Shown: positions 1,959-19,912 of the stretch, piece after piece
Position numbering within the stretch: position 1 is the first letter of the stretch
Layout of the letters: each line of letters starts with the position of its first letter
From: an uncultured virus (IMG/VR IMGVR_UViG_3300033170_000307)
Taxonomy: Duplodnaviria > Heunggongvirae > Uroviricota > Caudoviricetes
Length of the DNA: 20,000 nucleotides
Reading direction: 5' to 3' (one strand)
Virus record (IMG/VR): IMGVR_UViG_3300033170_000307
Notes under the pieces: model-generated
What the model was told of the DNA's origin: nothing
Seen by the model: only the letters and a program-made list of their open reading frames with translations
The model's database searches: none
Program-made: the position numbers and the translations under genes

Positions 1959-2190
1959 GAGTGCCTCGATGAGAGCTGCGATGAACCGGCATGGTAGTGG
2001 TTCTTGGAGAACGTGTCAAGAAGGCAACCGAATCGGTTGGGCGAAAAACGGGCTAGCTTTATGTCCGTGGGTGCCATAGTCTGAGAATGGGCGCGAGTCG
2101 TTTCCAACGAATAAATGCCCCTGGTCTATAACCTGTTTATACTTCGTTGCGTGCTATCCTGCGCGTATGATGCGCGCAATCCTGTGCACC

Positions 2191-2239
2191 AAAAAACTGA
2201 AAAAAAGGTCTTGACTAATGCCGGATATGGTGGTATGGT
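2191..2239 (+). promoter_or_regulatory. sigma70-type promoter with A-tract UP element and extended -10
   Basis: TTGACT (2211-2216), 17-bp spacer, TGn-TATGGT (2234-2239); A-tracts at 2191-2206. Confidence 0.75.
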
Positions 2240-2395: not shown

Positions 2396-3442
2396 ATGAA
2401 GGCACAGCAGCAGTATCAAGATGAGTATCGCAACGAGCATCTAGCGCGCTATGCTGACGCTCCAGAGGGGTACGTGCAAGGGGTACGGCAGAAGGGTATC
2501 CTGAATCCGAAAGCATACCTTGTGGCGCTTTGGTGTGGGGATGGACTCCGCGCCCTCCGCGCCCTTGAGGGGGAGGAAAAGAAGCGCGCCTCCCGCGCCT
2601 TCCGAAGGACTGAGGCAAAACTGAGGGAGGGTGGCACCTTTACGGCATCTTCCCTCCTCGCGTGCATTAAGGCGGCGTTCCTCGCCCTAACGGCGGTCCC
2701 CTCCTTGTCACAGGACTTCGCTTCCGAAGTGGAGTTCGTGGCAAAGTCGGCAGACCTCGCCGACAAGGACCTTGGCGAGACCATTCGCCTCCTCGCTGGT
2801 TACAGAGGGTGTGGAGGAAAGTCCTCACGAGGCGAGGACTTGAGCGACGAGGGAAAGAGGGGGCAGGCTTACATACGCGCATGTCGCGCGGTAAACGGCA
2901 TCGCAGGCAAGCCGAGAAATATCCTGCGCAAGACACAGGTTATCCGTAACCTGTGCCAAGACTCGCCCTTCGGCGAGGCCTTGTGCGAGGTGGTCCTGTA
3001 CCTCGTAAAAGTGAGGCAAGCAATGGAGCTGTTTCTCTCCTGCCTCACAAACCCGGACGTTTCCGCCGATGTGACCGCTGAGGCTTGCGCTGAATACGTG
3101 ACGCTGAGGCTAGGGGTCGCCGAAGTCCTGCAGGAGTTCAAGACGCGAGGCGGGGCCCTCTACGACGCGTATATTGAAAAGGCCAAGGAAAAGCGCGCTG
3201 AGGTCCTGCAGGAGAAGGCGGAGGCGGAGGCGGAGGTGGGTACAATCAAGTTCCGTAGGTCCCTTGACGGAGGGCGGACTTGGACTGACGAGGAGGTTCC
3301 GCTGAGCAAGCCGCAAGGCAAGATGCGCAACCGTAGGCGAGTCCACGGAATCCAGACAGTCTCGTGGGAAGTCCTGCAGGAGAAGGCGTGGAGGCAGGAA
3401 GAGGCGCTGCAGGAAGCGGAGGAGGAGGCAGTCTGGGAGTAG
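2396..3442 (+). CDS. hypothetical helical protein, ~348 aa (alternative start 2381)
   Basis: Long ORF between a promoter and a terminator; AAAGGGA upstream of ATG 2396; no family recognised. Confidence 0.85.
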   Translation: MKAQQQYQDEYRNEHLARYADAPEGYVQGVRQKGILNPKAYLVALWCGDGLRALRALEGEEKKRASRAFRRTEAKLREGGTFTASSLLACIKAAFLALTAVPSLSQDFASEVEFVAKSADLADKDLGETIRLLAGYRGCGGKSSRGEDLSDEGKRGQAYIRACRAVNGIAGKPRNILRKTQVIRNLCQDSPFGEALCEVVLYLVKVRQAMELFLSCLTNPDVSADVTAEACAEYVTLRLGVAEVLQEFKTRGGALYDAYIEKAKEKRAEVLQEKAEAEAEVGTIKFRRSLDGGRTWTDEEVPLSKPQGKMRNRRRVHGIQTVSWEVLQEKAWRQEEALQEAEEEAVWE

Positions 3443-3446
3443 AGAC

Positions 3447-3485
3447 AAAAAGGGCCCGCGCCGAGAGGCGCGGGCCCTTTCGTTT
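3447..3485. terminator. intrinsic terminator, probably bidirectional
   Basis: 14-bp stem AAAGGGCCCGCGCC-GAGA-GGCGCGGGCCCTTT with A-run before and T-rich run after, at the convergence of + and - genes. Confidence 0.85.
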
Positions 3486-3736
3486 GTGTAGCCAGGTGTT
3501 GGCGTTAGAGGCTGAGCTGCTGCTGGGGGTGGGTGGGGATGATTGCGGATGGGGCATGAACTGAACGGCAATCATCCTGGAGCCAAGTTTCCTGAACGGT
3601 CTTGGCGTTAGAGCCCAGCCCCTGCCCCCGCTGCTGTGCGCAGGATTGCGGGTTGGTCTTGATATGAACGGCCCGTCTCTCGGGCCCATGTTTTCCTGTC
3701 TACACTCTACGGCGCACGATTGCGGGTAGGAATAGC

Positions 3737-3764
3737 AACGGGCCGGCCCGAAGGCCGGCCCGTT
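3737..3764 (-). terminator. hairpin after the 113-aa gene
   Basis: 12-bp perfect stem with a C-UUCG-G loop on the minus strand; weak U tract. Confidence 0.6.
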
Positions 3765-3773
3765 CGTCCGTGG

Positions 3774-4115
3774 TTAGGCGACGGCCTCCGCGTTGGCGCC
3801 GAGTGCGATAGCGGCCCGTTCGTGGGGATAGCGGCCGAAGTTGGCATTGAAGACTTCGGCTTGCGCGCGGATGAAGCTGAGGGCGCGCGGCCCGGTGAAG
3901 TTGGGGTATCGACCGAAGGTGCGCCGATACCAGTTGCGATTGGCGTGGTCATCGCCATAGGGCGCGACGGCGAGGAGGTCCAGCGGCACGCCGGTGTAGA
4001 CTTCGGCGACGGGTTTCGGGTGATTCTTCGACGGCCCCTGCTGGTACAGGTCACCCTTGCGGAAATTGACCTGCGCGTTCGGCTTGTAGTACACTTGGTT
4101 CGGGTTCGTGCGCAT
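3774..4115 (-). CDS. hypothetical protein, 113 aa
   Basis: Fills one motif A unit; purine-rich leader; followed by a hairpin. Confidence 0.75.
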   Translation of the reverse strand: MRTNPNQVYYKPNAQVNFRKGDLYQQGPSKNHPKPVAEVYTGVPLDLLAVAPYGDDHANRNWYRRTFGRYPNFTGPRALSFIRAQAEVFNANFGRYPHERAAIALGANAEAVA

Positions 4116-4278
4116 AGCCTATCACTTCCCTATGGTGTGTTGTACGTCCGTCCTACACTACTGTGCGCATGATTGCGGGCCGACCTCCTCGGCCCTACAG
4201 AAGAGAGTTTAGCATAGCAGAAGAGTTGTGTAAACTACTTTCTTACACTACGTATGCGCACGATTGCGGCCCGGTCGT

Positions 4279-4338
4279 CTACCCAAAGAGTGCGGCGAGT
4301 CCTAACATCACGAGTCCGATGAGTGCGAGTGCTATCAT
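4279..4338 (-). CDS. 19-aa hydrophobic microprotein MIALALIGLVMLGLAALFG
   Basis: GGAGGT 5 nt before the ATG; fills one motif A unit; translated by hand. Confidence 0.6.
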   Translation of the reverse strand: MIALALIGLVMLGLAALFG

Positions 4339-4533
4339 AGGCGACCTCCGAAGTGTAGTTGGTACACTACCCGGCGCACGATTGCGCGGCCCTTGGCGTT
4401 AGAGCCCAGCCCTGGCTCACGGCGGCGCTGGATGATTGCGTTTGTGACTTTCGCTGAACGGCACTGAACAGGGAGCCATGGAATCAGGAGGGGCCGAAGT
4501 CCCTCCCTACATCACTGGGCGCACGATTGCGGG

Positions 4534-4797
4534 CTACTCTGCGTCGAGCTCTACCCGTCCGGTCATATCGGTGAGCTTGCGCTGGCGCAGGATTGCGATG
4601 CGCGTCTGCGCGTGCTGGGCGCGCAGGGCGGCGACCGCCTGCGTGAAGGCGACAATGAGCACGGCGGCGGCCAGGGCGCAGCAGCCGGGGATGATGTCGC
4701 CCCGCTGCAGGTCGTGGGCCTTGAGGAATTGGTAGTAGTGGACCGAGAAGACACCGACCAGTGCTGTGATGATGTGGCTGATGATGAGTCGTGTCAT
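4534..4797 (-). CDS. two-TM membrane protein, 87 aa (MTRLIISH...)
   Basis: GGAGG RBS; two hydrophobic stretches; stop abuts motif A. Confidence 0.7.
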   Translation of the reverse strand: MTRLIISHIITALVGVFSVHYYQFLKAHDLQRGDIIPGCCALAAAVLIVAFTQAVAALRAQHAQTRIAILRQRKLTDMTGRVELDAE

Positions 4798-5056
4798 GCG
4801 TCTGCCCTCCGGCATGTTTTTGGTGCGTACACAGCTATGCGCACGATTGCGGGGGCGGGGGCGGGGGCGACGGTGCCCCCGGCTCCCCGGCACGACTTCC
4901 ATACGCTTCCGCCACCACTTACCCCGCAGGGCCTCTAGAAGGCGGGTGGCGGACAACGTAGCAACACTCAGCGCATAGGCATCACCTTTGGTAGGGGGAG
5001 TTGCCGGAGGTTCGCGTTCGCTTACTCCGTACACTACTCTGCGCACGATTGCGGCC

Positions 5057-5125
5057 CTACTGCCGGGGCGGCGGGTAGCAGTAGGACATCAGGTTGAGCA
5101 GCAGCGCGACTATGTACATCGGCAT
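5057..5125 (-). CDS. 20-22-aa microprotein (MP)MYIVALLLNLMSYCYPPPRQ
   Basis: GAGGTG upstream; stop 2 nt from motif A; translated by hand. Confidence 0.45.
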   Translation of the reverse strand: MPMYIVALLLNLMSYCYPPPRQ

Positions 5126-5156
5126 CACCTCACACGACTGGGCGCACGATTGCGGC

Positions 5157-5237
5157 TCACTCACCTGCCGGGAAGAGCCACGCGAGGAAGTCGAGTGTCT
5201 TCTCCAGACAGACGGGCAGCATCACCAGCAGCCACAT
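5157..5237 (-). CDS. 26-aa microprotein MWLLVMLPVCLEKTLDFLAWLFPAGE
   Basis: Fills one motif A unit, stop 1 nt from the motif; no clear SD. Confidence 0.4.
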   Translation of the reverse strand: MWLLVMLPVCLEKTLDFLAWLFPAGE

Positions 5238-5369
5238 AGGGCATCACATCATGCCATTGTGCGCATGATTGCGGCCGGCCGCAGTGCCTGGCGTTAGAGC
5301 CCAGCCCCTGCCCCCGCTGCTCTGCGCACGATTGCGGTTAAGACTTCGATTGAACGGCTGAACAGAAGA

Positions 5370-5403
5370 GCCAAGGGAAAGCAGGTGTGAGCCTTCCCTT
5401 GGC
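5370..5403. terminator. hairpin beside motif B copy 4
   Basis: GCCAAGGGAA...TTCCCTTGGC inverted repeat. Confidence 0.4.
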
Positions 5404-5752
5404 CCTCCGGTGTACCTGTGTGCCTTCCCCGGAGAGGGCGGAGGCGTTGAGTTAGGCGCCTCCGGCAGCCGCTAGTCTGCGATGCCGGGACGGTGGGTAG
5501 CTCACCTTTGCAGGTGCCCGAACCTCTCTAGAACCCACCAAGTTCATCTTGGGATAGGCAGCAGGATTACTCTGTACACTACTCTGCGCAGGATTGCGGG
5601 TGGCTTTGGCGCTGGTCTGGCGCCGCTTTTGAGCCCGCTTTTCGCCCGATTGAGACGGCGAGCGTCTCACGCGATGTTTCTGGGCGCCACCCGCTTCATA
5701 CACTACTGTGCGCATGATTGCGGGGGAGGGGTTGTCTCCCCCGCGCACCTGT

Positions 5753-6145
5753 CTACATACTGTCGGCGGCGACCATTCCGGTCGTGGCCACGCCGAAGCG
5801 CGCCTGCAAGACCTCGGCGTGCTTCTCTTGCGCGCGGCGCTGGTCGTGCTCCACGGTGCGGCGGTACCCGGTGTCATGCTTCATGCGATAGTCGTGCAGC
5901 GCCTGCCACGCGGTCTTGTAGACCGCTTCCGTTTCGGCGGTGCGGTTGCGCATCATGGCGTGGAAGGCGCGGACTTCCGCCTGCTTGAGGTCGTGCACCG
6001 GGTCCGCTTCCGCTTCCGCCTGCCGGGCGGCGAGGTGGCGGCGCTTGGAGGCGGTGAGCCGAGCGCAATACTGCTCAAACTCCCCCTCCTCATACTGGAA
6101 GTTGTGACGGGAGTCGGGCTTGAGGGTCTTCTGCACGCGTTTCAT
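5753..6145 (-). CDS. hypothetical helical protein, 130 aa
   Basis: AGGTGAGG RBS; fills one motif A unit. Confidence 0.75.
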   Translation of the reverse strand: MKRVQKTLKPDSRHNFQYEEGEFEQYCARLTASKRRHLAARQAEAEADPVHDLKQAEVRAFHAMMRNRTAETEAVYKTAWQALHDYRMKHDTGYRRTVEHDQRRAQEKHAEVLQARFGVATTGMVAADSM

Positions 6146-6332
6146 GTTGCCTCACCTGTTAGGTGGTATTGGTCAGGTTGACACCTGACACTACTCTGCG
6201 CACGATTGCGACACAATTACCCCTTGGGATGATTGGCTCTGGCGTTAGAGCCCGGCGCCCCGGCACGGCAGGGGCACGATTGCGGATGTGTGCAATCGAT
6301 TGAACGGTCTTGAACTGGGACCCATGAAATGG

Positions 6333-6358
6333 AAAAGCCCCCGGCTCTCACCGGGGGC
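6333..6358 (-). terminator. intrinsic terminator
   Basis: GCCCCCGG/CCGGGGGC stem followed by UUUU on the minus strand. Confidence 0.7.
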
Positions 6359-6386
6359 CCTTCCGCAATCATCTAGCCGCGCCGCA

Positions 6387-6533
6387 TCAGCGTGCCTCCT
6401 TGGGTATGAGTGGCTGCACACGCCACTTCGGGCGCGTGATGTTCTGGTTCGGGCGGTTCCACGCGCAGCCAACGCTGCAGCCGACTTGGCCGCAGCGCGG
6501 GCACTTGCCTTCGTCACTCTGCCTGTAGGGCAT
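6387..6533 (-). CDS. 48-aa Cys-rich protein (CPRC...CSVGC)
   Basis: GGAGGT RBS, ATG 6533. Confidence 0.65.
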   Translation of the reverse strand: MPYRQSDEGKCPRCGQVGCSVGCAWNRPNQNITRPKWRVQPLIPKEAR

Positions 6534-6564
6534 ATCCAACCTCCAGAGTAGCTGGGTTCTTACA

Positions 6565-6861
6565 CTACTCTGCGCAGGATTGCGGCTTCGCCCGCCAGTG
6601 CCTGTCGCGCACAAGCGTGCGCATACGCAGGGCGGGGTGCTCCGTGATGCGTTCGTCTACCATCCGCGCTTCTTCGTCGCTGGCAGTGAAGACCAGGACC
6701 TCCGGCTGATTCTCCCAGCCGTGCTCGTGCTCCCAGGTGGGGTTCGGCCTCTTCAGGCCGGCCAGCAGGACCTCCCAGTCCACCGGCTCCTGCACCGGGA
6801 AGGTGATGCCCGTCTTGTCATAGCCGGTGCTGCCCGTCGCCCGTATGTATCGCCGTCTCAT
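6565..6861 (-). CDS. hypothetical protein, 98 aa (MRRRYIRATG...)
   Basis: GGAGGT RBS; reads through the motif A core and stops at its TAG. Confidence 0.75.
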   Translation of the reverse strand: MRRRYIRATGSTGYDKTGITFPVQEPVDWEVLLAGLKRPNPTWEHEHGWENQPEVLVFTASDEEARMVDERITEHPALRMRTLVRDRHWRAKPQSCAE

Positions 6862-6925
6862 GATGCAACCTCCACAGCGTAGTGGGTTCTTACACCACTC
6901 TGCGCACGATTGCGGGGCAGAGCCC

Positions 6926-7366
6926 CTACCCGTTGGGGTCGGGGGGCTCCACCTCTGCCGGGATGATTTCGCAGTAGACCTCATCGAGTTCGCCCTCGTC
7001 ATTCAGTTCGTCGGGGCGGTGCTCCTGAATCCACTCCTCCATGATTCTGTAGCACTCCTGTTCGGCGTGCGCCGGCATCACGTTGCTGCAGAAGACCGCG
7101 ACCGTGAGCTTGACGTAGCCGCTGCCGATGTGGAACATATAGGCGGGGTCGGGCTCGGGGAAGTCGGGCGTCTCGCTGGCGCGCTGCTTGAGCCATTCAT
7201 CGCGCGCGAGATTGCGGCGCCGGGCGTACTCTGCGCCGCGCTCCCATGAGGGCAGTTCGTCCAGGTCCTTGCCGCCAGGGAAGGGTACTTCGTCGCCGGC
7301 CTGATTCAGGTAAATCATGGCGACCGCCTGCCGCGCTTCGTCGCTGTGCAGTCCGGGTGTGGGCAT
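6926..7366 (-). CDS. acidic hypothetical protein, 146 aa
   Basis: GGAGGT RBS; fills one unit. Confidence 0.8.
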   Translation of the reverse strand: MPTPGLHSDEARQAVAMIYLNQAGDEVPFPGGKDLDELPSWERGAEYARRRNLARDEWLKQRASETPDFPEPDPAYMFHIGSGYVKLTVAVFCSNVMPAHAEQECYRIMEEWIQEHRPDELNDEGELDEVYCEIIPAEVEPPDPNG

Positions 7367-7420
7367 GTGAGACCTCCAGAAGTGAGTGGTTACACTCCTA
7401 TGCGCACGATTGCGGCCGCC

Positions 7421-7759
7421 CTACGACGGCGGCCAGATGTCGTAGCAGCGGGTATTGCCGCAGCGCCCCACAATGAGGTGCAGGGGAGCGAGCGCCGGGT
7501 ATTCGGGGAAGCCGTAGAGCGTGCAGAAGACCGCCCGCATGACATCGGGCGTGCCACGGCGCAGCTTCTGATTGCGCTTCGTCGCTTCGGGGTGCTCCCA
7601 GACCTGTTTCTCCTCAGGCGTCCACGTATGGCGGCCCGACTCGATGCGGAAGCCCGCGTTCGTCAGAGCATCAATCGGGTGGATGATGTGGCCGGGCGCC
7701 AGTTCTTCTGTCTGCTTGAGTGCGGCCAGCGCAGCCGCGAGCGCTTCGTCGTAGGACAT
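7421..7759 (-). CDS. hypothetical protein, 112 aa, CxxC...CxxC
   Basis: GGAGGTCGCATC-ATG; CTLY and CGRC motifs in the C-terminal part (only one full CxxC). Confidence 0.75.
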   Translation of the reverse strand: MSYDEALAAALAALKQTEELAPGHIIHPIDALTNAGFRIESGRHTWTPEEKQVWEHPEATKRNQKLRRGTPDVMRAVFCTLYGFPEYPALAPLHLIVGRCGNTRCYDIWPPS

Positions 7760-8142
7760 GATGCGACCTCCACAGTGTAGTGGGTACACTCCTCTGCGCA
7801 CGATTGCGGGGCACACGCCGACAGCCACTCTTTCTCCCCGTGCCTCTGCTTCGCCTCATGAGGGGCACTCCACAGAGCGAACACTTGGGAGCGAGAGGAT
7901 TGGCCTGCCGGCGTCTGCCTCGCCATCTGGCGTTAGACCTGGGCCCCTGGTCCACACGTCTGCGCATGATTGCGGGTCGGATTACGATTGAACGGCAACT
8001 GAACGGGGACCTAGAAAACTGCGACCGGACGGCGCACTGGGCATTGCTGCTCCCGCTGCTACGCCCCTGTAGCCGGCTACGGGGTTCGCTGCTGTTACTC
8101 GGGATGCGCCGTCCGCTCACATCTCTATGCGCACGATTGCGG

Positions 8143-8469
8143 CTACCCCTCGTCGCCGAGGGGCACCACTATCATCACGCCACTGAGCACGAGCACCGGG
8201 GTGGGCTCGGGCACGCCGTAGACGTGGGCATACGTCTGCAGCGCGGGGTCGGTGCTCAGCAGGCTCACGTCGCGTACCCAGTCCTTGCCACTCTCACCGA
8301 TGATAGTGCAGAGGTGGGCGCAGCACTGCACGGGGCAGGTGAAGCGCGCGGCGTTGCAGCGCACGCACACTTGGTGCATTCGGTCGAGCTTGGCCAGTTC
8401 GTCAACGTCCGGGCCGTTCAGGTAGCCGTGGTTCCTGACAATCTTCTCCAGTAGCTTCTGCAGGGGCAT
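8143..8469 (-). CDS. Cys-rich hypothetical protein, 108 aa
   Basis: GGAGGTCGCATC-ATG; CVRC...CPVQCC; stop directly abuts motif A. Confidence 0.75.
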   Translation of the reverse strand: MPLQKLLEKIVRNHGYLNGPDVDELAKLDRMHQVCVRCNAARFTCPVQCCAHLCTIIGESGKDWVRDVSLLSTDPALQTYAHVYGVPEPTPVLVLSGVMIVVPLGDEG

Positions 8470-8541
8470 GATGCGACCTCCCGGTATGGGGTTGGGGGCA
8501 GGTCACCCTGCCCCCTATACTACTCTGCGCACGATTGCGGG

Positions 8542-8766
8542 CTACTTGATGGCGTACTTCGCGTGGAAGCGCTCGGTGTGGCTGAAGCTCTGGGTGATGC
8601 AGCGGCCGATGCGCACGGCCCCCGCGTTGCCCACGAAGACCTTGCGGTCCTCGCTCATCTTCGGGTGCGTGAAGCAGCGGTACTTGCGCCCTCTGGTCTG
8701 GGTCTCGGTGTACCCGAGTTCCTGCAGCTTGGCGATGACCTGCTCCGTCTTGGTCAGCTTGGCCAT
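8542..8766 (-). CDS. basic hypothetical protein, 74 aa (MAKLTKTEQ...)
   Basis: GGAGGT RBS; stop abuts motif A. Confidence 0.75.
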   Translation of the reverse strand: MAKLTKTEQVIAKLQELGYTETQTRGRKYRCFTHPKMSEDRKVFVGNAGAVRIGRCITQSFSHTERFHAKYAIK

Positions 8767-8842
8767 GGGTGCGACCTCCATAGATGTGATGGATACGTGG
8801 GGAGCACTGCGGCTCCCCACGATACTCTGCGCACGATTGCGG

Positions 8843-9127
8843 CTACCGTATCGTGCGACCGGGGCGCTGGTCCACAGCCTCCTGAATGTGATGGCCCACG
8901 TCGTCGCCGAGTTGCTCGGCGATGGGCTTGGTCTTGTCGTCGCCTGCAGGCAGCCCGGCCTTCTCGCGGAAGGCGGACTCCACTGCGCCGATAACGCTGC
9001 TGGTGGCATAGACGTGCCCCTTCTGGCGGGGGAACTTCTCGCCGCGCAGGGTCACCTGCATACCCTGAAAGACGCCCATGTACCAGACCTCACGGACGCG
9101 ACACGCTTCCTTCTGAATGGGTCTCAT
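8843..9127 (-). CDS. hypothetical protein, 94 aa (MRPIQKEA...)
   Basis: GGAGGT RBS; stop abuts motif A. Confidence 0.75.
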   Translation of the reverse strand: MRPIQKEACRVREVWYMGVFQGMQVTLRGEKFPRQKGHVYATSSVIGAVESAFREKAGLPAGDDKTKPIAEQLGDDVGHHIQEAVDQRPGRTIR

Positions 9128-9327
9128 GACGACCTCCCTGTCGGGGTGTGTGCTACACTGTTGTGCGCACGATTGCGGCAGGCTTGTCGTGTACCGCCAA
9201 CGGCCTTCCTGCTGGTCGGTGCCAACCGTAGCCAGTTGGAAGTGGCAATGCCATTGACGATACCCGACAAGCCTGGCGTTAGAGCCAGGCCGGCCGCTCT
9301 CCACACATCTCTGCGCAGGATTGCGGC

Positions 9328-9356
9328 AAGGGAGGCCGCCTGAACGGCCTCCCTTT
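9328..9356. terminator. hairpin inside motif B copy 7
   Basis: AAGGGAGGCCG-CCTGAA-CGGCCTCCCTT, just past the stop at 9363. Confidence 0.55.
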
Positions 9357-9362
9357 CGGGAC

Positions 9363-9806
9363 CTAGAATGTGGGAACCGTCTCGAAGCCGCGCCCCGTGA
9401 AGATGGGGACGCTCGGCTCCGGCTCCTCCTGCTCCTCCCACAGGTGCCGGGGCTGCAGCGGCCACCCGCTCTTGTCATAGAGTTGGCCGCAGTTGTCGCA
9501 GCAGGACGTGAAGTCATCGAGAGTCACTTCGGCTCTGCACACTACACAGCGCGCGATTGCGGGCTCGACGTAGCTCCATTCATACTTCTGCACGTAGATG
9601 GGGAAGCGCTTGGCGCCCGTGATGAAGTCGGTGACGACCTTGCGATAGTTGTCAAGCCACGTCTGGGACTTGCCCTCGAAGTCCACACAGCCGCGCTCGT
9701 CGGACTTGAAAGCGAAGCCGGAGCCGCGCCCGTGCACATCGCACGCCAGACTGTACTCCACGCAATCGACCGGCTTGGCCTCACTGATGATTTCCGCCTG
9801 GGGCAT
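9363..9806 (-). CDS. zinc-ribbon-like protein, 147 aa
   Basis: GGAGGT RBS; CVVC...CDNC. Confidence 0.8.
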   Translation of the reverse strand: MPQAEIISEAKPVDCVEYSLACDVHGRGSGFAFKSDERGCVDFEGKSQTWLDNYRKVVTDFITGAKRFPIYVQKYEWSYVEPAIARCVVCRAEVTLDDFTSCCDNCGQLYDKSGWPLQPRHLWEEQEEPEPSVPIFTGRGFETVPTF

Positions 9807-9841
9807 GGTACGACCTCCTGAGTTCATGGTTCGTGCTTACA

Positions 9842-10015
9842 CTACTCTGCGCACGATTGCGGAGACAGGACTGGCTTGCCGGCGCGCACGACTCGGTAAG
9901 TGCCGCTGAATTGGGGGTGCTTGCCTGCCACGGCCAGCCGCGCATAGCGCATGTCGGACTCGTCGCGGATGGTGGCGAAGTCCATATAGGGCTCCAGGAC
10001 CACATCATCGGGCAT
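9842..10015 (-). CDS. 57-aa protein MPDDVVLEPY...PQSCAE (not in the ORF track)
   Basis: GGAGGT RBS; translated by hand; stops at the TAG inside motif A. Confidence 0.65.
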   Translation of the reverse strand: MPDDVVLEPYMDFATIRDESDMRYARLAVAGKHPQFSGTYRVVRAGKPVLSPQSCAE

Positions 10016-10087
10016 GGTACGACCTCCTGTGAATCAGGGTGCGGGGAGGGTTGCCCCTCCCCGATACTTCTCTGCGCACGATTGCGG

Positions 10088-10369
10088 CTACTCGATGGGC
10101 GGCGGGACCGGGATAGACCATGCCGCTTGGATGACGTTGGCCGGAGCGTCCGGGTACTTGCGGTCGGGAATCTCGAAGCCCTTGGCGGCGAAGTTGAGTT
10201 CGCCATTGGGCAGGGTGGGGACTTCCACCACGTCACCGCGCCGGGGCACGTTCAGGTCGTTGGCCGCGACCTCGTAGAAGTGGCCCTCCTGCGTGAGTAG
10301 GCGCACACCCAACATACCAAAGTCATTGCGACTCTCTGAGACGCCGAAGCACTTCATCTCGACTGGCAT
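10088..10369 (-). CDS. hypothetical protein, 93 aa
   Basis: GGAGGT RBS; stop abuts motif A. Confidence 0.75.
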   Translation of the reverse strand: MPVEMKCFGVSESRNDFGMLGVRLLTQEGHFYEVAANDLNVPRRGDVVEVPTLPNGELNFAAKGFEIPDRKYPDAPANVIQAAWSIPVPPPIE

Positions 10370-10443
10370 GAGACGACCTCCTGTGAGACAGGGTGCGGGG
10401 GCGGTTGCCCGCCCCCGATACTACTCTGCGCACGATTGCGGGG

Positions 10444-10803
10444 CTACCGTTCCCGCATCTGCACGTCATCGAGCGAGGGCGTATCCTCGCAGGTGCATTC
10501 GCTGTCATAGTTGCCGCAGCGGCGGCAACGGCCATCGCGGCCCCCGTCTTCGTCTTCGTCGCTCTTGGGCTTGGCGGGCTGCCATTCGCCGTCAATCAAG
10601 ACGCCGAGGAAGGTGCGCCCCCCGCTGCCCCCGCTGCCCCCGGTGGCGTAGACGTTGAAGTGGTCCTGCCCGCCGCCGTGGTGGGCGACAACCTCGATAC
10701 CGCAGTGCCAGCCGTTGACGTGGGCGGTGAGCCCCGTCTGCTTGTCACCGAGCCGCGACGCTTCGCCACGACCGCCCCGCAAAGTCCCTCTGAACTGTGC
10801 CAT
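10444..10803 (-). CDS. Gly-rich hypothetical protein, 119 aa, C-terminal Cys cluster
   Basis: GGAGGT RBS; MAQFRGTLRGGRG...; CRRC...CTC. Confidence 0.75.
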   Translation of the reverse strand: MAQFRGTLRGGRGEASRLGDKQTGLTAHVNGWHCGIEVVAHHGGGQDHFNVYATGGSGGSGGRTFLGVLIDGEWQPAKPKSDEDEDGGRDGRCRRCGNYDSECTCEDTPSLDDVQMRER

Positions 10804-10876
10804 GTGCGACCTCCCGTGAATTGGGGTGCGGGGAGGGTTGCCCCTCCCCGATACTACTCTGCGCACGATTGCGGGG

Positions 10877-10948
10877 CTACTTCCACGCTGCGCCCAGACC
10901 CTCCTGCATGATGTCCTGCACGGCCTTGACCTGAGCGGCGACGCTCAT
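10877..10948 (-). CDS. 23-aa peptide MSVAAQVKAVQDIMQEGLGAAWK
   Basis: TAATG overlap with the upstream stop; stop 2 nt from motif A. Confidence 0.45.
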   Translation of the reverse strand: MSVAAQVKAVQDIMQEGLGAAWK

Positions 10949-11157
10949 TAGGACACCACCTGGCCCTGGCGGGCGGCGCGGTTGCGGACGCGGCGGCCTG
11001 CGGCGCGGTGGTTGAGCATGGCCTGCGTGTCGGCGAAGGTGAGCTTGCGGGCGTTGCCGTTGCGGTCCTTCGGGGTGCGGCGCTGGCTGCAGGAGCTGCA
11101 GTTGGGCGTGCCGTTGGGGCGGGAGCAGGTGTTCGCATTGCACGTCGAGATGACCAT
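10948..11157 (-). CDS. Cys-containing basic protein, 69 aa
   Basis: GGAGGT RBS; C-x4-C...CSSC. Confidence 0.65.
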   Translation of the reverse strand: MVISTCNANTCSRPNGTPNCSSCSQRRTPKDRNGNARKLTFADTQAMLNHRAAGRRVRNRAARQGQVVS

Positions 11158-11232
11158 GGGTGAGACCTCCAGAGGTATGGGTTGGGGCAGCAGATGCTGC
11201 CCCGTTGTACACTTGTCTGCGCAGGATTGCTG

Positions 11233-11601
11233 CTACCCGAACTTCGTGGGGTTGGCCTCCACGAGGTCGCCCCAGCTACCGACCCAGAAGCGGCCCTGCC
11301 GAGCGTCATAGAGCAGGGTGGCGTCGTAGGTCTCCCCGGTGTTGCAGTAGTACACACCGTGGCCGAGGGTCTCGACCCCGAAGGTGCCGAGCAGGTGGTC
11401 GGCGATGAGGAGAATGTTGCTGCTGCGGTTGCCCGCAGGCAGGTAGTCGTGCTTCCCCGGCTGCACACCGAGCATATCGGCGACCGGGATAGACTTGACC
11501 TCGCGCTTGATGAGGGCCCGAAGCAGTGCCAGCTTGCAGGTGGCTATCTTCGGGAAGAGAGCCTGCAGAGTCTTCATCGAAGCGAAGCCGTGCTGTGCCA
11601 T
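11233..11601 (-). CDS. hypothetical protein, 122 aa
   Basis: GGAGGTCGCATC-ATG; stop next to motif A. Confidence 0.8.
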   Translation of the reverse strand: MAQHGFASMKTLQALFPKIATCKLALLRALIKREVKSIPVADMLGVQPGKHDYLPAGNRSSNILLIADHLLGTFGVETLGHGVYYCNTGETYDATLLYDARQGRFWVGSWGDLVEANPTKFG

Positions 11602-11629
11602 GATGCGACCTCCATGCTGTGATGGGTGC

Positions 11630-12139
11630 TTACACTACTGTGCGCAGGATTGCGCGCAGGTCGCTGGCGTGATGGCGGGTGCTGGCGGAGACGGCGGCGT
11701 CAGAGGGCATGGCCTGTCCTTCGGGCATGTTGTCCAGCACCTTAGCGTTCGCTTCCCACCTGTCCGCGAGCTTCTCCAGTTCCTCCTCCAGCGTGGGAAT
11801 GCTGTCGCCGAAGTTGATGCAGCCCCGAAGCTGGATGGGGTTCAGGACCTCGGGTCCGTGCTGCTCGCAGGCGTCCGTGACGATGTGCTGCGCCAGTTCG
11901 TAGGCGGACGCTGGCGGCAGGTCGGTGCGGCGTGTGAGCAGTTGTGTATCCTGCAGCGTGGGCGTCTTGTCTTCCCCGGCCAGATGCACGCGGCCGGCAG
12001 TGACGCAGCCCAGTTCGTGCCGGATGAGGACGAAGCCCGGCTTGCCCACCTGCTCCTCGTCCACTTCCTGCTCGGGCAGCCAGAGGCAGCCCACGTCGTA
12101 CTTTGTCGCCGGGTCGTTCCCCGGCTGTCCGCTGACCAT
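11630..12139 (-). CDS. hypothetical protein, 169 aa (MVSGQPGND...)
   Basis: GGAGGT RBS; C-terminus runs through motif A. Confidence 0.75.
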   Translation of the reverse strand: MVSGQPGNDPATKYDVGCLWLPEQEVDEEQVGKPGFVLIRHELGCVTAGRVHLAGEDKTPTLQDTQLLTRRTDLPPASAYELAQHIVTDACEQHGPEVLNPIQLRGCINFGDSIPTLEEELEKLADRWEANAKVLDNMPEGQAMPSDAAVSASTRHHASDLRAILRTVV

Positions 12140-12191
12140 GATGTGACCTCCATGCGGTGATGGGTACACTGCTCTGCGCAGGATTGCGGGC

Positions 12192-12701
12192 TCAGCCATA
12201 GACTTCGGACTGCGCCCGCTTGTGGAAGTCTTCCGGCGTCTCGCTCCAGTGCTGCTTGAGAAGCCAGTCCCGGCGCTTGCCGTCGCGTACCTGGTAGGCC
12301 AGCAGGCCACAGTAGGCGGTGATTTCGTAGCCCAGCCAGTACATGGTGATTGCGGCGTTGCCGCAGAAGTCCCCGGCGCGGCTCATGCTGTACTGCGGGC
12401 CGGGAGGTGTGGCGAGTTGCGGGTCAACGTCCCTCGATTCGCTGGTGGTCTCGACGCCCGTGGCATACAGGCGCTCGATGACCCAGAGCGTATCGCCAGA
12501 CAGCAGCTTGTAGCAGGTCTGCTGGCGCGGGTAGCTGCTGTAGTAGTAGATGCCTGCGGCGTCGTGCACGTGAGCGTGCAGCGTCTCGGCGCTCTCCAGC
12601 TTGGCCGTCGCCATCTGGCCCCTGGCCTGCTGTGCCGTGATGTAGCTCTTGGTGCCGTCTGGCCCCTCCAGCAGGTAGACCTTGCGCGTGTACGTCCTCA
12701 T
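12192..12701 (-). CDS. hypothetical protein, 169 aa (MRTYTRKVY...)
   Basis: GGAGGT RBS; stop 2 nt from motif A. Confidence 0.8.
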   Translation of the reverse strand: MRTYTRKVYLLEGPDGTKSYITAQQARGQMATAKLESAETLHAHVHDAAGIYYYSSYPRQQTCYKLLSGDTLWVIERLYATGVETTSESRDVDPQLATPPGPQYSMSRAGDFCGNAAITMYWLGYEITAYCGLLAYQVRDGKRRDWLLKQHWSETPEDFHKRAQSEVYG

Positions 12702-12873
12702 GAGCGACCTCCCGTGAATTGGGGTGCGGGGAGGGTTGCCCCTCCCCGATACTACTCTGCGCACGATTGCGATGGGCCTGGCGTTAGAGCCCGGCCGGCC
12801 GGCGCCCGCGCGTGCGCGCGATTGCGGGTTGGGAATCGTCTGAACGGCAACAGAACAGGGAGCCAGGAATACG

Positions 12874-12910
12874 AAAAGCCCCCGGCCATTGCGTCTTCAG
12901 GCCGGGGGCT
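12874..12910 (-). terminator. intrinsic terminator
   Basis: GCCCCCGGCC/GGCCGGGGGC stem followed by UUUU on the minus strand; beside motif B copy 8. Confidence 0.65.
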
Positions 12911-12985
12911 CTCTCATTTCTGTGCTCAGAAACCTGACAGTCTGCTTATTGAGCGCGCTGCCTGCGCTGGGGGGCTGGGGCTTCG

Positions 12986-13180
12986 TCAGCCATACCCTGT
13001 CGGGTACAGGGGAATGGGCCTCACCTCCAACGGTTCGACTGCGCTGCCTTGACTTAGTAGATGGCAGCAGGACAACGGCTTGGACAGCAGCGCGTCAGTG
13101 GGCGCCACGTCTTGTGGGGGCAGAGCAACGAAGCTCAGGCCAACCAAGACAACCGTCATTACTACCATGCGCAGCCTCAT
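12986..13180 (-). CDS. possible 64-aa protein with hydrophobic N-terminus
   Basis: Follows a degenerate motif A; no clear SD. Confidence 0.35.
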   Translation of the reverse strand: MRLRMVVMTVVLVGLSFVALPPQDVAPTDALLSKPLSCCHLLSQGSAVEPLEVRPIPLYPTGYG

Positions 13181-13225
13181 CCCGCAGTGATGTACAACTC
13201 ACGTATCTGAGCGCTTGATTGCGGC

Positions 13226-13525
13226 TCAGGAGTTTGCTACGGCGTCCACGTCCGTGACGTGCAGGCGCTTGCCGCGCAACTGCAGGCGCACGTGGATGGG
13301 GAGCTTGGCGGGCTGGCCGATGGCGCGGTACTTGACCGTGGCGCTGGTGTTGCCACTCGGGAGCACCAGAGCGTGCTTGCCCGTGGTGGCCACGTCATCG
13401 AGCTTGTAGAGCGCATCGCTCAGGACGAACTGCTCGGGCAGGGCGGTGCCGGGCTTCTTGATGTGCTCGGCTACGTCGGTGAGGCTACGGAAGACCAGAG
13501 CCAGCGTCGGCTTCTTTCTGGGCAT
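13226..13525 (-). CDS. hypothetical protein, 99 aa (MPRKKPT...)
   Basis: GGAGGT RBS; stop abuts motif A. Confidence 0.75.
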   Translation of the reverse strand: MPRKKPTLALVFRSLTDVAEHIKKPGTALPEQFVLSDALYKLDDVATTGKHALVLPSGNTSATVKYRAIGQPAKLPIHVRLQLRGKRLHVTDVDAVANS

Positions 13526-13577
13526 GTTCAACCTCCACAGCGTGTAGTGGGTTACACTACTTGGCGCACGATTGCGC

Positions 13578-14042
13578 CTATGCTATCGCGACCAGCGGGG
13601 TGCCGTCAACCTGTTTCGTGCTGGCGCTGGCCACAGCGGCGCGAGCGCGGAGCATGAGACCGGGTACGAACTTGGGCGCGCCCATGCCCGCAGGCACACC
13701 GGCGGCTTCCTGAACGGTGCCTTCGATGACCCGCAGGAGTAGGGGCTGGGTGTAGCCCACACGGTCCTCGGCCCATTGCAGCGTAAGGTCGTACATACTG
13801 TCGGTGTGAGTGGCCTTGGCGGTGAACGCGTCCAGCAGCGGAGCGCTATGCACAGTGCACAGGTACACGCCTTCCATGGTGCGGCCGTCTACGGTCAACT
13901 GCCGGGTGGAGCGAGCGTGTGGCGTGCGGGTGTACTCACGCATCCACGGTTCCAGCTTCTCGAACGGCACGAAGTAGTGCGCATGGCCGGAGCACAGCTT
14001 GCAGGTGTGCCTGGCCTGCCTCATCCGGGGAGGCATTGGCAT
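13578..14042 (-). CDS. hypothetical protein, ~154 aa, CxxC...CxxH
   Basis: Fills one unit; CKLC...CTVH; start uncertain. Confidence 0.7.
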   Translation of the reverse strand: MPMPPRMRQARHTCKLCSGHAHYFVPFEKLEPWMREYTRTPHARSTRQLTVDGRTMEGVYLCTVHSAPLLDAFTAKATHTDSMYDLTLQWAEDRVGYTQPLLLRVIEGTVQEAAGVPAGMGAPKFVPGLMLRARAAVASASTKQVDGTPLVAIA

Positions 14043-14118
14043 TGGGCATCATCCCTTCGGGGAAGAAGTGTGGGGGCAGGTCTCCCCGCCCCCTACATCT
14101 ATCGGCGCACGATTGCGC

Positions 14119-14649
14119 CTACTTCTCGGGGACGACCCACTCGTCCTCGGGCTCGAAGAGCCCGTCCTCGATGTCGTCGAGCTTGGTCAGGATGAAGTGG
14201 GTGATGCAGGTACCCTTGTCCTGCACCAATGCGGTGAAGTCCATCTGCAGCTTCGTCATGTTGCGAATGGTGGCGGCGGTGATGCTCTCCGGCTCGTGGC
14301 CCTCACGCTGCAGGACGAACTCAGCCTCGTCGGGCATGTCGGCGGGCAGGTTGATGATGCCCTGCTCCAGAGCCACCATGCTAAGGTTCCAGATAGCGTC
14401 ATGCACGCGCTTGACCTGCTCGCGCATCTGCCGGGCTTCCATCTGGACGCGCTCATAGCTGTCGCTCGGCGACCAGTCGTCGTTGGCACAGCCCTCTGCC
14501 AGCGCCATCCGCTTGGCCCGCTGCCAAAGCGACTTGGCCGGGAAGAGTAGCCCGGCGATGGTGGCGGCGAACTCCTTGCCGAACTGCTCGCGCAACACCT
14601 CGCCATTGGGCATGATGTTGACGCTGCCGATGACCTTCTCTCCACTCAT
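14119..14649 (-). CDS. hypothetical protein, 176 aa
   Basis: GAGGT RBS; stop abuts motif A. Confidence 0.8.
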   Translation of the reverse strand: MSGEKVIGSVNIMPNGEVLREQFGKEFAATIAGLLFPAKSLWQRAKRMALAEGCANDDWSPSDSYERVQMEARQMREQVKRVHDAIWNLSMVALEQGIINLPADMPDEAEFVLQREGHEPESITAATIRNMTKLQMDFTALVQDKGTCITHFILTKLDDIEDGLFEPEDEWVVPEK

Positions 14650-14724
14650 GTCTCGTACCTCGTTAGGGTTAGCGGTCGGGGGCGGTCGCCCGCCCCCGTT
14701 ACACTTCTGTGCGCACGATTGCGC

Positions 14725-15171
14725 CTACAGCCAGCCGCGCACCCGCTTCATCAGCAGGCAGTCATCGTGCCGCCGCCCAGACCCCTTGCGGTGCAGGTAG
14801 TTCTGGACGAAGGCATTGAAGGTGATGCCCACGCTCTGCCCGTACTTCGCAACCGTGTCGAAGTCGTGACCCTCGACCAGTTGGCAGAGGCAGTATATGC
14901 TCTTCTCGGTGACCTCGAAGAAGTCGCCGTCGTCGTCGGTGGGGAAGCCGGCCCAGTCGGGGTCAGTCTCAGCCGCCATCTGGCCGGGGTGCTTCAGTTC
15001 GTGAGCGAAGCCAAGGTCCAGCCGGTCGCCCTCGCGGGCTGCGAGCAGGGCCTGCACGTCGCTGGGGTCGAGGTGCTCGCCTTCCTTGAAGTTGACGATA
15101 CACCAGACCTTGTAGTTGCTCCCGTCGCGGTAGAGCACGTTCATCTGTACGCGATGCTTCTGTTCAGGCAT
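14725..15171 (-). CDS. hypothetical protein, 148 aa
   Basis: GGAGGT RBS; stop abuts motif A. Confidence 0.8.
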   Translation of the reverse strand: MPEQKHRVQMNVLYRDGSNYKVWCIVNFKEGEHLDPSDVQALLAAREGDRLDLGFAHELKHPGQMAAETDPDWAGFPTDDDGDFFEVTEKSIYCLCQLVEGHDFDTVAKYGQSVGITFNAFVQNYLHRKGSGRRHDDCLLMKRVRGWL

Positions 15172-15204
15172 AGGCAGGTGACCTCCGGCCGATGAAAGGT
15201 TGTA

Positions 15205-15708
15205 CTACTCAGCGCAGGATTGCGCTTTGGCCTTCTCCCCGATGGCCTCGATGGCGTCGGTCGGCTCTTGGCTGGCGCTGAATTGCCTCAGACACAGGAG
15301 ACCGTGCTCGATGCTGGCGAACGCGCTGGCGATGAGGTAGCGCTGGCTGACACCATCCCCCTCCTTGACTTCCTGCTGCACCTGCCCGGCGCTCAGGCGG
15401 TAGGGCTTGAGCCAGAGGCTCAGGCCCGCTTTCAGTTCATCGAGGTTCTCAATCATGACGTGCACATTGGTCTCGGCGCTGAAGCGGCCCCCGAAGGTGC
15501 ACGAGACGTACTCAGGCGAGACGTAGACCTGCTGCTCGGCGGGCACGTCTTTGAGGTGGCTGTACCAACTGCCATGACTGTGGTCCCAGACCCGGTAGCC
15601 CAGCGGCTGGGTGCGGCACTTCTCACAGAAGCACAGGGTCGCGGCGTGGTAGCAGTGCACGGAGCACGGCACCTGGGGTGTGCAGGACTTGCGGCGCCGG
15701 ACTTTCAT
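15205..15708 (-). CDS. hypothetical protein, 167 aa, Cys/His-rich N-terminus
   Basis: GGAGG RBS; CSVHC...CFCEKC; stops at the TAG inside motif A. Confidence 0.75.
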   Translation of the reverse strand: MKVRRRKSCTPQVPCSVHCYHAATLCFCEKCRTQPLGYRVWDHSHGSWYSHLKDVPAEQQVYVSPEYVSCTFGGRFSAETNVHVMIENLDELKAGLSLWLKPYRLSAGQVQQEVKEGDGVSQRYLIASAFASIEHGLLCLRQFSASQEPTDAIEAIGEKAKAQSCAE

Positions 15709-15756
15709 GTTGCGGCCTCCTCGGTAGGGTTGTACTCCTCAGCGCACGATTGCGGC

Positions 15757-16239
15757 TCAGTAGTCCATCGAAGCCAGTGCCCCGCGCACCCGGCGCTCAG
15801 GGTCAGGCGAGCGCATATCATCCAGCGCCTGCTGGTGCTGCGCCCGGTCCTTGGCATTGCTGTCGAGGATGACGTTGCACAGTTCCACGAACTTCTCGAT
15901 GGCCGGGGCCTTGGACCTGAAGACGAAGACGGTACGGGTCCCTGCCGGGTCGTTCGGCACCCGGTGGATGCGCTTGCGCAGGAAGGCCTTCTGCCTCTTG
16001 TCGGCCAGCCCGAACCGGTCGCGGGCTTCGTACTGCTTGAGCACCTTGCGTACTTCTTCGGCCCGCATTTCGGGCCCGACAGTCCAGAGTTCAGTGGGGC
16101 AGTTGACATGCGCGAGGGAGGGGCGAAAGCCGGAGTTGATGCAGCCGTAGGGTTCCGGCCCGCCGAGGATGGCACCTCTCTTCAGGCGACCATGCTTGCG
16201 CACGTCATCAGCAGTGAAGGGCTTGCGTTGCTGAGACAT
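15757..16239 (-). CDS. basic hypothetical protein, 160 aa
   Basis: GGAGGT RBS; stop abuts motif A. Confidence 0.8.
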   Translation of the reverse strand: MSQQRKPFTADDVRKHGRLKRGAILGGPEPYGCINSGFRPSLAHVNCPTELWTVGPEMRAEEVRKVLKQYEARDRFGLADKRQKAFLRKRIHRVPNDPAGTRTVFVFRSKAPAIEKFVELCNVILDSNAKDRAQHQQALDDMRSPDPERRVRGALASMDY

Positions 16240-16454
16240 GGGGGGCGACCTCCATTGGATGATGGGTACACTACTGTGCGCACGATTGCGGAGCGGGCGG
16301 CCTGCCGGGATGTCGGTCGGCAGGCCCCCGCCGCGCTGTAGTCCCTACCAAGGACAGCTTGATGGCGTTAGAGCCGCGCCCGGCGCGCCGGCAGGGTGGC
16401 AGGGAACCCTTTGGGAGGCCCTGAACGGCCTCGCTCTTGGAGCCATGATTTCCG

Positions 16455-17096
16455 TTAGCCGCTCATCGCGTCAATGAGCATCTGCATGACTTCGGGCAGT
16501 TCCTTGCCGCAGTGCGGGCAAGCGTAGCCCTCGTGGTTGATTTCGCCACCCATGTCGCCGTCGTCCATGCTGTCGTAGCTGTACTCGAAGCGCCCATCCA
16601 CCAGTTCTTCGCACTCCAGCGTCACGCCCTAGTCGGTCGTCACCTTGTCGGCTTCGAGCGTGTCGAGCACGTCGCCACAGTGCGGGCACTTGGGGTAGCC
16701 CGTCTCGTCGTCCACGTCGAACTTGAACTCGGCGGCTGCGTGCTTGAGAGCGATGTCGAGGATGTGCTGCACGTCGTTCATGTGGCCGCGCAGAGCCATG
16801 ATGAAGCAACCGAGGACCTCGGTGCCCTTGTTGCCCCTCGCACCCTGCCACGCGCTGTCTACGACCTTGGCGAGCAGGTGGTCGGCCAAGCGCTTGCCCC
16901 GCGCCACGTTGCTCGGCTCTTCGATGTCACGAGTGGTCACCTCGAAGTGCGAGATGGCCTCCAGAGCGTGCTGGACGCTGGCCGGGAACTGGATGATGTC
17001 GCCGGAGAGCGAGCTCCGGTCATTGGACGCGATGCGCTCCGCCTCACGAAGCACTTGGTTGACCTTGCGTTCATCTGCGGGTGGTCTCTTGGGCAT
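16455..17096 (-). pseudogene. zinc-ribbon protein (213 codons) with an in-frame TAG at 16629-16631
   Basis: AAGGAGG RBS; CPHC...KVTTD*GVTLECEE...YACPHCGKEL...MSG-TAA continues in frame. Confidence 0.7.
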
Positions 17097-17231
17097 GTAG
17101 CCCTCCTTGGTAGGGGAATTTGATGGGGGAGGGAGGAGTGCGCACTCAACGAGCCGTGGGTAGCTGCTAGGACTACCAAGTCGTCTCGCTGTCGCCCTCC
17201 CCATCCAATACTCTGCGCACGATTGCGGCGC

Positions 17232-17975: not shown

Positions 17976-18058
17976 GTCATGCTCCTTGGTAGGAAGTAGT
18001 GTATGGTGTCGTCCGCCGACACCCTACACCCCTCTGCGCACGATTGCGGCGTGGTATC

Positions 18059-18778: not shown

Positions 18779-18868
18779 CACTCCTCGTGGGTTGGTATAC
18801 TACTTCTTCAGACGAAACGTGTCAAGCTATTTCTGACACCCTACACCACTCGGCGCAGGATTGCGGGC

Positions 18869-19459: not shown

Positions 19460-19541
19460 GAAGCACCTCCTTGGTAGGTTGTACTCCTATGCGCACGATT
19501 GCGGACAGCCCCCACCCGATGCGTTGGGCAGGGGCCGGCCG

Positions 19542-19859: not shown

Positions 19860-19912
19860 GGTTGACCTCCAGAGTGGTTCTTACACCACTGTGCGCACGA
19901 TTGCGGGGCTAT

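Follow-up and report, generated by a model that had tools for sequence, protein, structure and literature searches.

Large phages carry dozens of tiny genes of unknown function in variable regions, and wave-wise switching is known in few groups of them. Which signals could govern such a region is the question raised by the locus described here, a 20,000-nt stretch (hereafter the window) that forms the right end of a 132,027-bp contig (62% GC) of an uncultured virus (IMG/VR record IMGVR_UViG_3300033170_000307). The contig carries tailed-phage genes, encoding terminase, tape measure protein, DNA polymerase III alpha, DnaB, NAD ligase, Ro60 and four TnpB proteins. From position 3701 to the window end, short unrelated open reading frames (ORFs) lie on the minus strand, with a repeat, motif A, ahead of most of them. 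A second, rarer repeat along this array, motif B, is the subject of our analysis.

All nine copies of motif B that an initial annotation of the window had claimed were recovered, with starts at 3500, 3603, 4394, 5289, 6240, 7928, 9274, 12779 and 16363. They are all intergenic and in the same orientation, and no further site with boxes 1 and 2 together was found in the rest of the contig. A tenth copy is present in a 215-kb metagenome record (L046:176-270), which is identical to the window over 17,222 bp and extends 1,954 bp beyond it; this copy lies 1.7 kb past the right end of the window and heads the array. In gene sense, i.e. on the minus strand, motif B consists of four A/T-rich bases, box 3 (C-W-W-G-G-N-Y-C-C), box 2 (CCGTTCA), an interior and box 1 (TCTAACGCCA). 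Boxes 2 and 1 are invariant in all ten copies, while the interiors average 56% identity compared with 42% for shuffled sequences. The four nucleotides preceding box 3 are A or T at 35 of 40 positions (36% across the array), and leave-one-out scores of box 3 place every copy above the 99.6th percentile of 5000 random sites. By chance, box 1 alone is expected 0.18 times in the contig, and box 1 plus box 2 at the observed spacings 1e-4 times. A profile built from the nine window copies recovers these by construction (E 1.7e-20 to 9.4e-13); the next matches are motif A cores only (E 0.004 or worse). Motif B is a conserved module with box 3 and the CCA of box 1 as its limits.

Spacing of the boxes had been described as conserved, which holds for boxes 3 and 2 but not for boxes 2 and 1. 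Box 3 is separated from the GTT of box 2 by 16 nt in seven copies, 17 in two and 15 in one, whereas box 2 and box 1 are loosely spaced (49-57 nt). Measured on the plus strand, the distance from the first T of box 1 to TGAACGG is, in copy order, 62, 62, 61, 62, 61, 61, 67, 62 and 59 (58-66 in the count of the initial annotation), while the starts of TGAACGG and box 3 are 16-18 apart. The core of motif A, GATTGCG, is embedded in eight of the nine window copies and missing at 16363, precisely as the initial annotation had it (there, 16364). It lies 21-23 nt from box 2 in these eight copies and is inverted in the tenth. The reported match of 47 out of 49 bases between 3603-3651 and 5289-5337 was likewise reproduced.

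What could this module do? From the boxes, their spacing, the hairpins, the position of the copies and their modularity between strains we infer, with a confidence that falls a little short of an even chance, that motif B, in what would be an early-type gene array, combines a terminator with a gene-sense promoter for an alternative sigma factor, in which box 3 is the -35 and box 2 the -10 element and the A core serves as downstream operator. A stem-loop at variable position would stop incoming transcription. Boxes 3 and 2, 16 +/- 1 nt apart, would then be read by the alternative sigma factor, and transcription would start about 5-7 nt past the GTT of box 2. The promoter would comprise boxes 3 and 2 alone. 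The transcribed region would include the A core at about +10 to +24, in operator position, and further down box 1 at about +46 to +63. A protein binding motif A would damp motif B, and box 1, once transcribed, would serve as a signal for pausing, factor loading or the RNA end. A distance of 16 +/- 1 nt is the -35/-10 geometry of the sigma70 family, and promoters of extracytoplasmic function (ECF) sigma factors have a spacer of about 16-17 nt. By their tight spacing, boxes 3 and 2 stand out as a pair. A non-sigma70 promoter on the minus strand, as proposed in the initial annotation, still is the best reading: the two boxes are in this geometry, one copy heads the array and several are located behind strong hairpins. 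The tenth copy would be hard to transcribe from upstream because it is at the head of the array, and copies 6240 and 12779 because each follows a hairpin with a U run.

The proposed terminator part prompts a closer look at the stems. Stems of at least 10 bp within -70 to +35 of box 2 are found at five of ten copies, compared with 4/42 A sites (p 0.008) and 14/300 random sites (p 1e-4). Their placement is variable: they lie ahead of boxes 3 and 2, overlap them or surround them. In a stricter test, hairpins ending just before box 3 were present at 4/10 copies and 2/60 random sites (p 0.003). The hairpins listed in the initial annotation all exist; two of them, at 9328 and 16415, surround box 2 instead of flanking it. 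A classic hairpin with U run precedes only two of the ten copies: copy 6240 (6240-6326) is right behind a 14-15-bp hairpin (about 6331-6364) and copy 12779 (12779-12867) right behind one of 14 bp (about 12874-12913), with a gap of 1-3 nt each. The idea that each copy restarts the next transcription block fails for copies 3603 and 3500, after which comes no cassette but only a terminator.

In the remaining window copies the stems are arranged differently. Copy 5289 (5289-5375), whose box 1 half provides the near-identity to copy 3603, has a 13-16-bp stem (about 5366-5406) overlapping box 3. Box 2 is surrounded by an 11-bp stem (9328-9355) in the longest copy, 9274 (9274-9366), by a 10-bp stem (3537-3577) in copy 3500 (3500-3587) and by a 6-bp stem in copy 16363 (16363-16447). 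Copy 7928 (7928-8014) lies behind a long structured leader (8013-8125, z -4.13), and copy 4394 (4394-4480) is preceded by motif A 4519 and a 7-bp hairpin. In copy 3603 (3603-3690), 12 nt after motif A 3701-3725, a 6-bp stem is found between boxes 3 and 2. All of these copies are on the minus strand. By eye, another long stem fills the interval between the CCA of copy 9274 and the next motif A (window 9180-9273).

Stop codons precede two copies: box 3 of copy 9274 overlaps that of ORF 9363-9806, and one ends 8 nt before copy 16363. Downstream, each copy is followed by motif A, another motif B or a terminator. Motif A follows eight copies within 7-119 nt (7 nt for copies 4394 and 12779), and none of the ten ends in a ribosome-binding site and start codon. 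The last two copies, 3603 and 3500, are in tandem; 20 nt further on, without any gene, a bidirectional terminator-like hairpin ends the array (3449-3480, z -6.38). The tenth copy has an inverted motif A 10 nt upstream and no same-strand motif A upstream in the known sequence. Motif B as a coding sequence was rejected, because reading from start codons in box 3 leads to mixed frames at boxes 2 and 1, TAG occurs there in two copies and synonymous variation is absent.

Strains of the phage differ at these modules. In L048, copy 7928 differs by a single substitution, but its flanks are both replaced, the upstream one by a different hairpin leader; this leader (L048:255-360, z -1.62) and that at 8013-8125 differ in sequence and have a similar long stem. 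In L045, copy 12779 is unchanged but fused to another A leader, and five cassettes are absent. Contigs from two RNA-labelled runs of one study have joints at 7928, 6239 and 12777, i.e. at the box 1 edge; these were matched at 85% likeness with some sides short, and bear on neither strand nor transcription.

If the A core is an operator, the same sequence connects motif B with the far more numerous repeat. Motif A (40 copies in the window at 3701-19906, minus strand; 44 with the L046 extension) consists of CGCAATCGTGCGC and a AGAGTAGTGTA tail and in most cases is followed by a ribosome-binding site and a short ORF that has no Pfam family. Its core is located directly before a TAGTGT-like element that lacks a conserved -35, which suits an activator site. 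In motif B, inversion of the core in the tenth copy and its absence at 16363 suit an orientation-free operator. One factor could therefore switch motif A on and motif B off, and the nesting of 44 A and 10 B copies around one core provides a concrete, testable wiring. Two sigma70-type promoter matches inside the array, each right after a motif A, are at window 18797-18825 and 4206-4234 (minus strand). A motif A-like sequence is also present in frame within ORF 9363-9806 (window 9538-9564), perhaps a fused cassette boundary.

The shared core had also led to the suggestion that motif B is a complete site for site-specific recombination or inversion that moves cassette blocks, with motif A as its remnant. 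We consider this highly improbable. Around the 44 A copies (four in-ORF look-alikes excluded), residual boxes 1 and 2 score 4.93 vs 4.98 and 3.55 vs 3.44 matches, i.e. at chance level. Moreover, motif A has its own tail, which is poor in motif B (0-8 of 11 matches in the seven copies scored, compared with a mean of 8.1 in motif A). Boxes 1 and 2 do resemble the L box pair of the bottom strand of integron attC sites with one unpaired G, and strain differences stop at the edges of box 1 and box 3. Similar to attC (PMC5027507), motif B has an inverted GTT/AAC pair with one extra G and a variable interior and is part of a cassette array; in contrast to attC, R' and R'' boxes are found in 0/10 copies and the long hairpin is lacking (RNA parameters). 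There are 10 B sites for more than 30 genes, and no integrase was found in the 132 kb, although a host enzyme could supply this activity. Searches of the contig, with controls working, also revealed no tyrosine recombinase, no resolvase or other serine recombinase, no NusG and no RNA polymerase beta match. Exchanges between strains occur at A leaders (L045) as well as at B edges (L048), which is what plain homologous recombination predicts, and the tenth copy is flipped in its core only, not in the interior. For the latter reason an invertible promoter was dismissed, too.

Several observations weigh against the proposed stop-and-restart module. Hairpins ending just before box 3 are not significantly more frequent at motif B than at motif A (4/10 copies vs 8/43 A sites, p 0.21), and four of the ten copies have stems of 6-7 bp only, although in one of these, copy 7928, a 12-bp stem of longer range is present. 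Both box 3 and the A/T tract were defined only after inspection of the copies. No such promoter was detected elsewhere in the contig, where the best score, inside an ORF, was 17.8 vs 25-33. Copies 3603 and 3500 have no downstream gene, yet keep all 17 invariant bases. The promoter reading does not account for box 1, the longest invariant part. The contigs from RNA runs give neither strand nor ends. Box 3 lacks the AAC that is a hallmark of ECF -35 elements, while the opposite strand of box 2 (TGAAC) contains it. Finally, the lone sigma factor found in the phage is SigH-like and fits a separate GGAATACTT motif better.

The last two points concern the type of sigma factor and the direction of reading. 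ECF promoters (group 4) are characterized by CGT in the -10 and AAC in the -35 element (PMC8103513). Motif B resembles them in having two short boxes about 16 nt apart (15-17 in 10/10), a near-invariant -10 and CGT in box 2 of all ten copies on the minus strand. It differs in that its putative -35 (CWWGG) contains no AAC; just upstream, AAC occurs in 2/10 copies only, 19 nt from CGTT. Promoter activity of motif B is putative and no cognate sigma factor was identified. Promoters of sigma54 have GG and GC 10 nt apart (TGG-N9-TGC), a spacing found in 0/10 copies on either strand.

The search of the contig for a sigma factor, as advised in the initial annotation, yielded one protein of 203 aa (C1:12285-12896; PHROG E 6e-5, Atlas 0.97, TIGR02937 E 5e-6, below the cut-off) with SigH-like relatives. 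SigH reads GAAT. Of 18 GAATACT sites, 13 form the separate GGAATACTT motif; 12 of these are on the strand of the structural genes, and the array contains none. The minus-strand sites (C1:586, 5019, 28061, 38348, 39143, 71768, 74637, 77452, 78727, 81434, 83335 and 87679) are mostly located shortly before structural and tnpB genes, and a single site is on the plus strand (C1:21152). Judged from these positions, GGAATACTT is a candidate late promoter for the SigH-like sigma. Since SigH reads GAAT and the motif sits on the structural-gene strand, the 203-aa protein is more likely a late factor than the reader of motif B. RNA polymerase and recombinase genes had been suggested as further search targets, and none was found in the 132 kb; for single-subunit RNA polymerase the search had no working control, but the Pfam scan of 87 ORFs detected none either.

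Because TGAAC on the opposite strand carries AAC, the direction of motif B is ambiguous. It could be a plus-strand promoter (TGAAC as -35, CCWDG and the A/T tract as -10) whose antisense transcription would enter the upstream block, while the core and box 1 would be factor sites upstream of the promoter, or else a DNA platform that is no promoter at all; we regard this pair of possibilities as quite unlikely. In the antisense version the 16 +/- 1 spacing holds equally, the A/T tract would be the melting region, and an inverted core would be tolerable at an upstream site. However, relative to their neighbors nine copies would then point in antisense and the tenth in sense direction, compared with uniform reading on the minus strand, and in four copies a hairpin would follow within about 10 nt of firing. 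In favor of a platform, boxes 1 and 2 are related as imperfect inverted versions of a single motif, and the same protein could bind to both; their spread of 49-57 nt, however, amounts to three quarters of a helical turn and is poor for phased binding.

Returning to the gene-sense promoter, the terminal copies 3603 and 3500 keep every invariant base although no gene follows them; the function must therefore go beyond the restart of a cassette. Probably box 1, or a short RNA ending there, matters. For the terminal pair, either a short box 1-bearing transcript may matter, or firing through the terminator against the convergent 348-aa gene.

This leads to an explanation at the RNA level, which is unlikely, though a little less so than the plus-strand promoter or platform: the ten copies would be a family of paralogous small RNAs, or of signals acting at the RNA level, that have little fold in common. 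The boxes would serve as single-stranded sites for recognition, frequently placed in hairpin loops, and the CCA of box 1 may mark the RNA end. Indeed, motif A 3712, copies 3603 and 3500 and the terminator form a unit without ORF, and three further copies come after a motif A with no gene between. Copies 7928, 5289, 4394 and 3603 have a motif A upstream, followed by a hairpin leader or almost nothing. Conservation ends exactly past CCA, both among paralogues and among strains (L048; joints 7928, 6239 and 12777). Stems of 10-11 bp enclose box 2 in 2/10 copies vs 0.6% of shuffled controls, and box 1 lies within a hairpin of at least 3 bp in 8/10. Several copies have stems of their own that place box 2 in a loop, and a role at the RNA level therefore stays alive. 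Furthermore, the two loops are complementary over GUU/AAC, and such a kissing contact is beyond scoring by the folding programs used.

Folding analyses, however, gave little evidence for a common structure. Consensus folding of all ten copies on both strands, or of the interior alone (pseudoknot-free), returned one 3-bp hairpin; the covariation check thus yielded 3 pairs with no compensatory change. The window contained no match to a tRNA or Rfam family, and two copies lie just past terminators. These results do not favor the structured RNA family that the initial annotation had offered as an alternative. Its inverted boxes flanking the core fared no better, as a helix between box 1 and box 2 has a pairing probability of at most 0.016 in 10/10 copies (RNA parameters) and costs 1.5-17.6 kcal/mol. 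Interiors folding better than z -2 were found in 2/10 copies only. A Ro60-binding Y RNA was also rejected: although the phage has Ro60 and adjoining Y-like RNAs, motif B has neither the GNCGAAN0-1G motif nor tRNA-like arms (PMC4201824). Likenesses to pistol and HDV ribozymes, bulge-helix-bulge, T-box, LexA and PhoP boxes and 16S helix 3 were discarded after comparison by eye only.

Box 1 was also compared with leader signals that act on RNA polymerase. Like lambda/rrn boxA (PMC2724277), it is short, invariant and located in a predicted leader, about 50 nt from its start, and GCTCT is present in 8/10 copies. Yet motif B lacks CUUA/CUUUA, and the invariant part of box 1 is not the boxA-like part. 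The boxA sequence given in that source, CGCUCUUA or UGCUCUUUA, is absent: box 1 reads GCTCTAAC in 8/10 copies and has other bases in two. The RfaH ops element (PMC7819879) is similar in being a short invariant leader sequence with a small hairpin. This likeness to ops is confined to the opposite strand, and the contig encodes no NusG paralogue. Combining these elements, a bolder proposal, to which we give rather low confidence, is that motif B is a self-contained unit of a two-tier phage control circuit: the alternative-sigma promoter would be repressed via the A core, and in its transcript ten invariant bases, UCUAACGCCA, would form a signal not described before, which would either bring an antitermination factor to RNA polymerase or be the active part of a new multicopy small RNA. 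If box 1 were a new leader signal or RNA end, it would add to the classes of antitermination or small-RNA elements.

The closest known systems that we compared with the stop-and-restart module are the promoter-early stem-loop (PeSL) cassettes of the T4-type phages RB49, phi1, PST and nt-1 (PMC2839356; PMC4122927), whose stem-loops fall into five positional classes relative to the boxes (PMC2839356), a range also seen for the stems of motif B. Both recur between genes in a variable region of small genes of unknown function (motif B with ten copies, in the array only), both have A/T-rich upstream bases, and strains differ at the modules. Several copies of motif B also resemble PeSLs in having a stem-loop before, between or over the two boxes. 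A stem of at least 10 bp is present in 5/10 copies of motif B; a sixth has the 12-bp long-range stem, and the remainder have 6-9 bp. In contrast to PeSLs, motif B has neither a sigma70 consensus, with no sigma70-type site mapping to boxes 3 and 2 (CWWGG, CCGTTCA), nor a 3' ribosome-binding site or start codon. Further differences are an invariant third box about 50 nt downstream, the embedded core of motif A, a much more abundant repeat, and two copies that face no gene. Because the sigma70 boxes and the 3' ribosome-binding site are absent, motif B is not a PeSL, but by analogy it may work like one. Should it be just a PeSL-like terminator-promoter for another sigma, this would extend a known layout to non-sigma70 promoters.

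Outside close strains of the phage no relatives of motif B were found in viral contigs, GTDB genomes, INPHARED, a capsid search or two distant phages. In viral contigs there were 32 single matches to the pair of boxes 1 and 2 (best profile E 0.37), and 0 and 16 single matches to two motif A patterns; GTDB genomes gave 26 single matches in unrelated taxa, not scored further, and INPHARED one 42-bp match (E 0.5). The distant phages G001 and G002 (about 30% terminase identity) lack motif B. G001 (L096-L104) has terminase, portal-like and capsid-like proteins in common with our contig and carries dozens of intergenic AGAGTAGCAGG copies in both orientations, the first seven bases of which equal the motif A tail. 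A literature search with exact motif strings and topics, judged from titles and listings with subscription journals and supplements outside its scope, returned nothing on such an element. Samples containing the stretch are from sludge, wastewater or digesters in 20/24 rows (13 studies; two rows are possibly the source). Three rows, X18-X20, are RNA-labelled, make up a small share and are no evidence of expression.

Among the neighbors of the array, the convergent 348-aa ORF (2396-3442, plus strand) belongs to no family, has no Atlas match and has three relatives with 66-85% identity; its structural model (pLDDT 47) did not resolve the fold. A lone A-like core at 2175 lies 36 nt ahead of the sigma70-type promoter (2211-2239) of this gene (2175-2239, plus strand). 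Of 32 scanned proteins, 31 of them array-encoded, none reached the Pfam cut-off. At the other end, a 28-bp tandem repeat (window 19913-20000) marks the break point of the contig and in L046 comes after the end of a 234-aa ORF. Four tandem 41-bp units at L046:1-166, each with a motif A in opposite orientation, stand back to back with the tenth motif B, which suggests a second, divergent arm or an assembly break.

Elsewhere in the contig, four stand-alone tnpB genes in two pairs (C1:3856-5022, 6984-8171, 37228-38361 and 77489-78682) have no adjoining transposase; three have the late motif at their start, and a possible fifth remnant is near C1:49000-49187. Motif B as a TnpB guide or insertion-sequence end was discarded, as the flanks of the four genes share nothing with it by eye. 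A candidate iteron origin, with several copies of a 27-bp imperfect palindrome, is located in an A/T-rich gap beside replication genes (L034:1650-2105; C1:20650-21105). Between a sigma70-type promoter and the Ro60 gene (C1:22044-23777) there are five Y-RNA-like tandem units (L034:2285-3010; C1:21285-22010). In the third of these the T arm comes before the D arm, with an Rfam YrlA match (E 0.0011) under the gathering score, and the remaining four have the end boxes alone in common.

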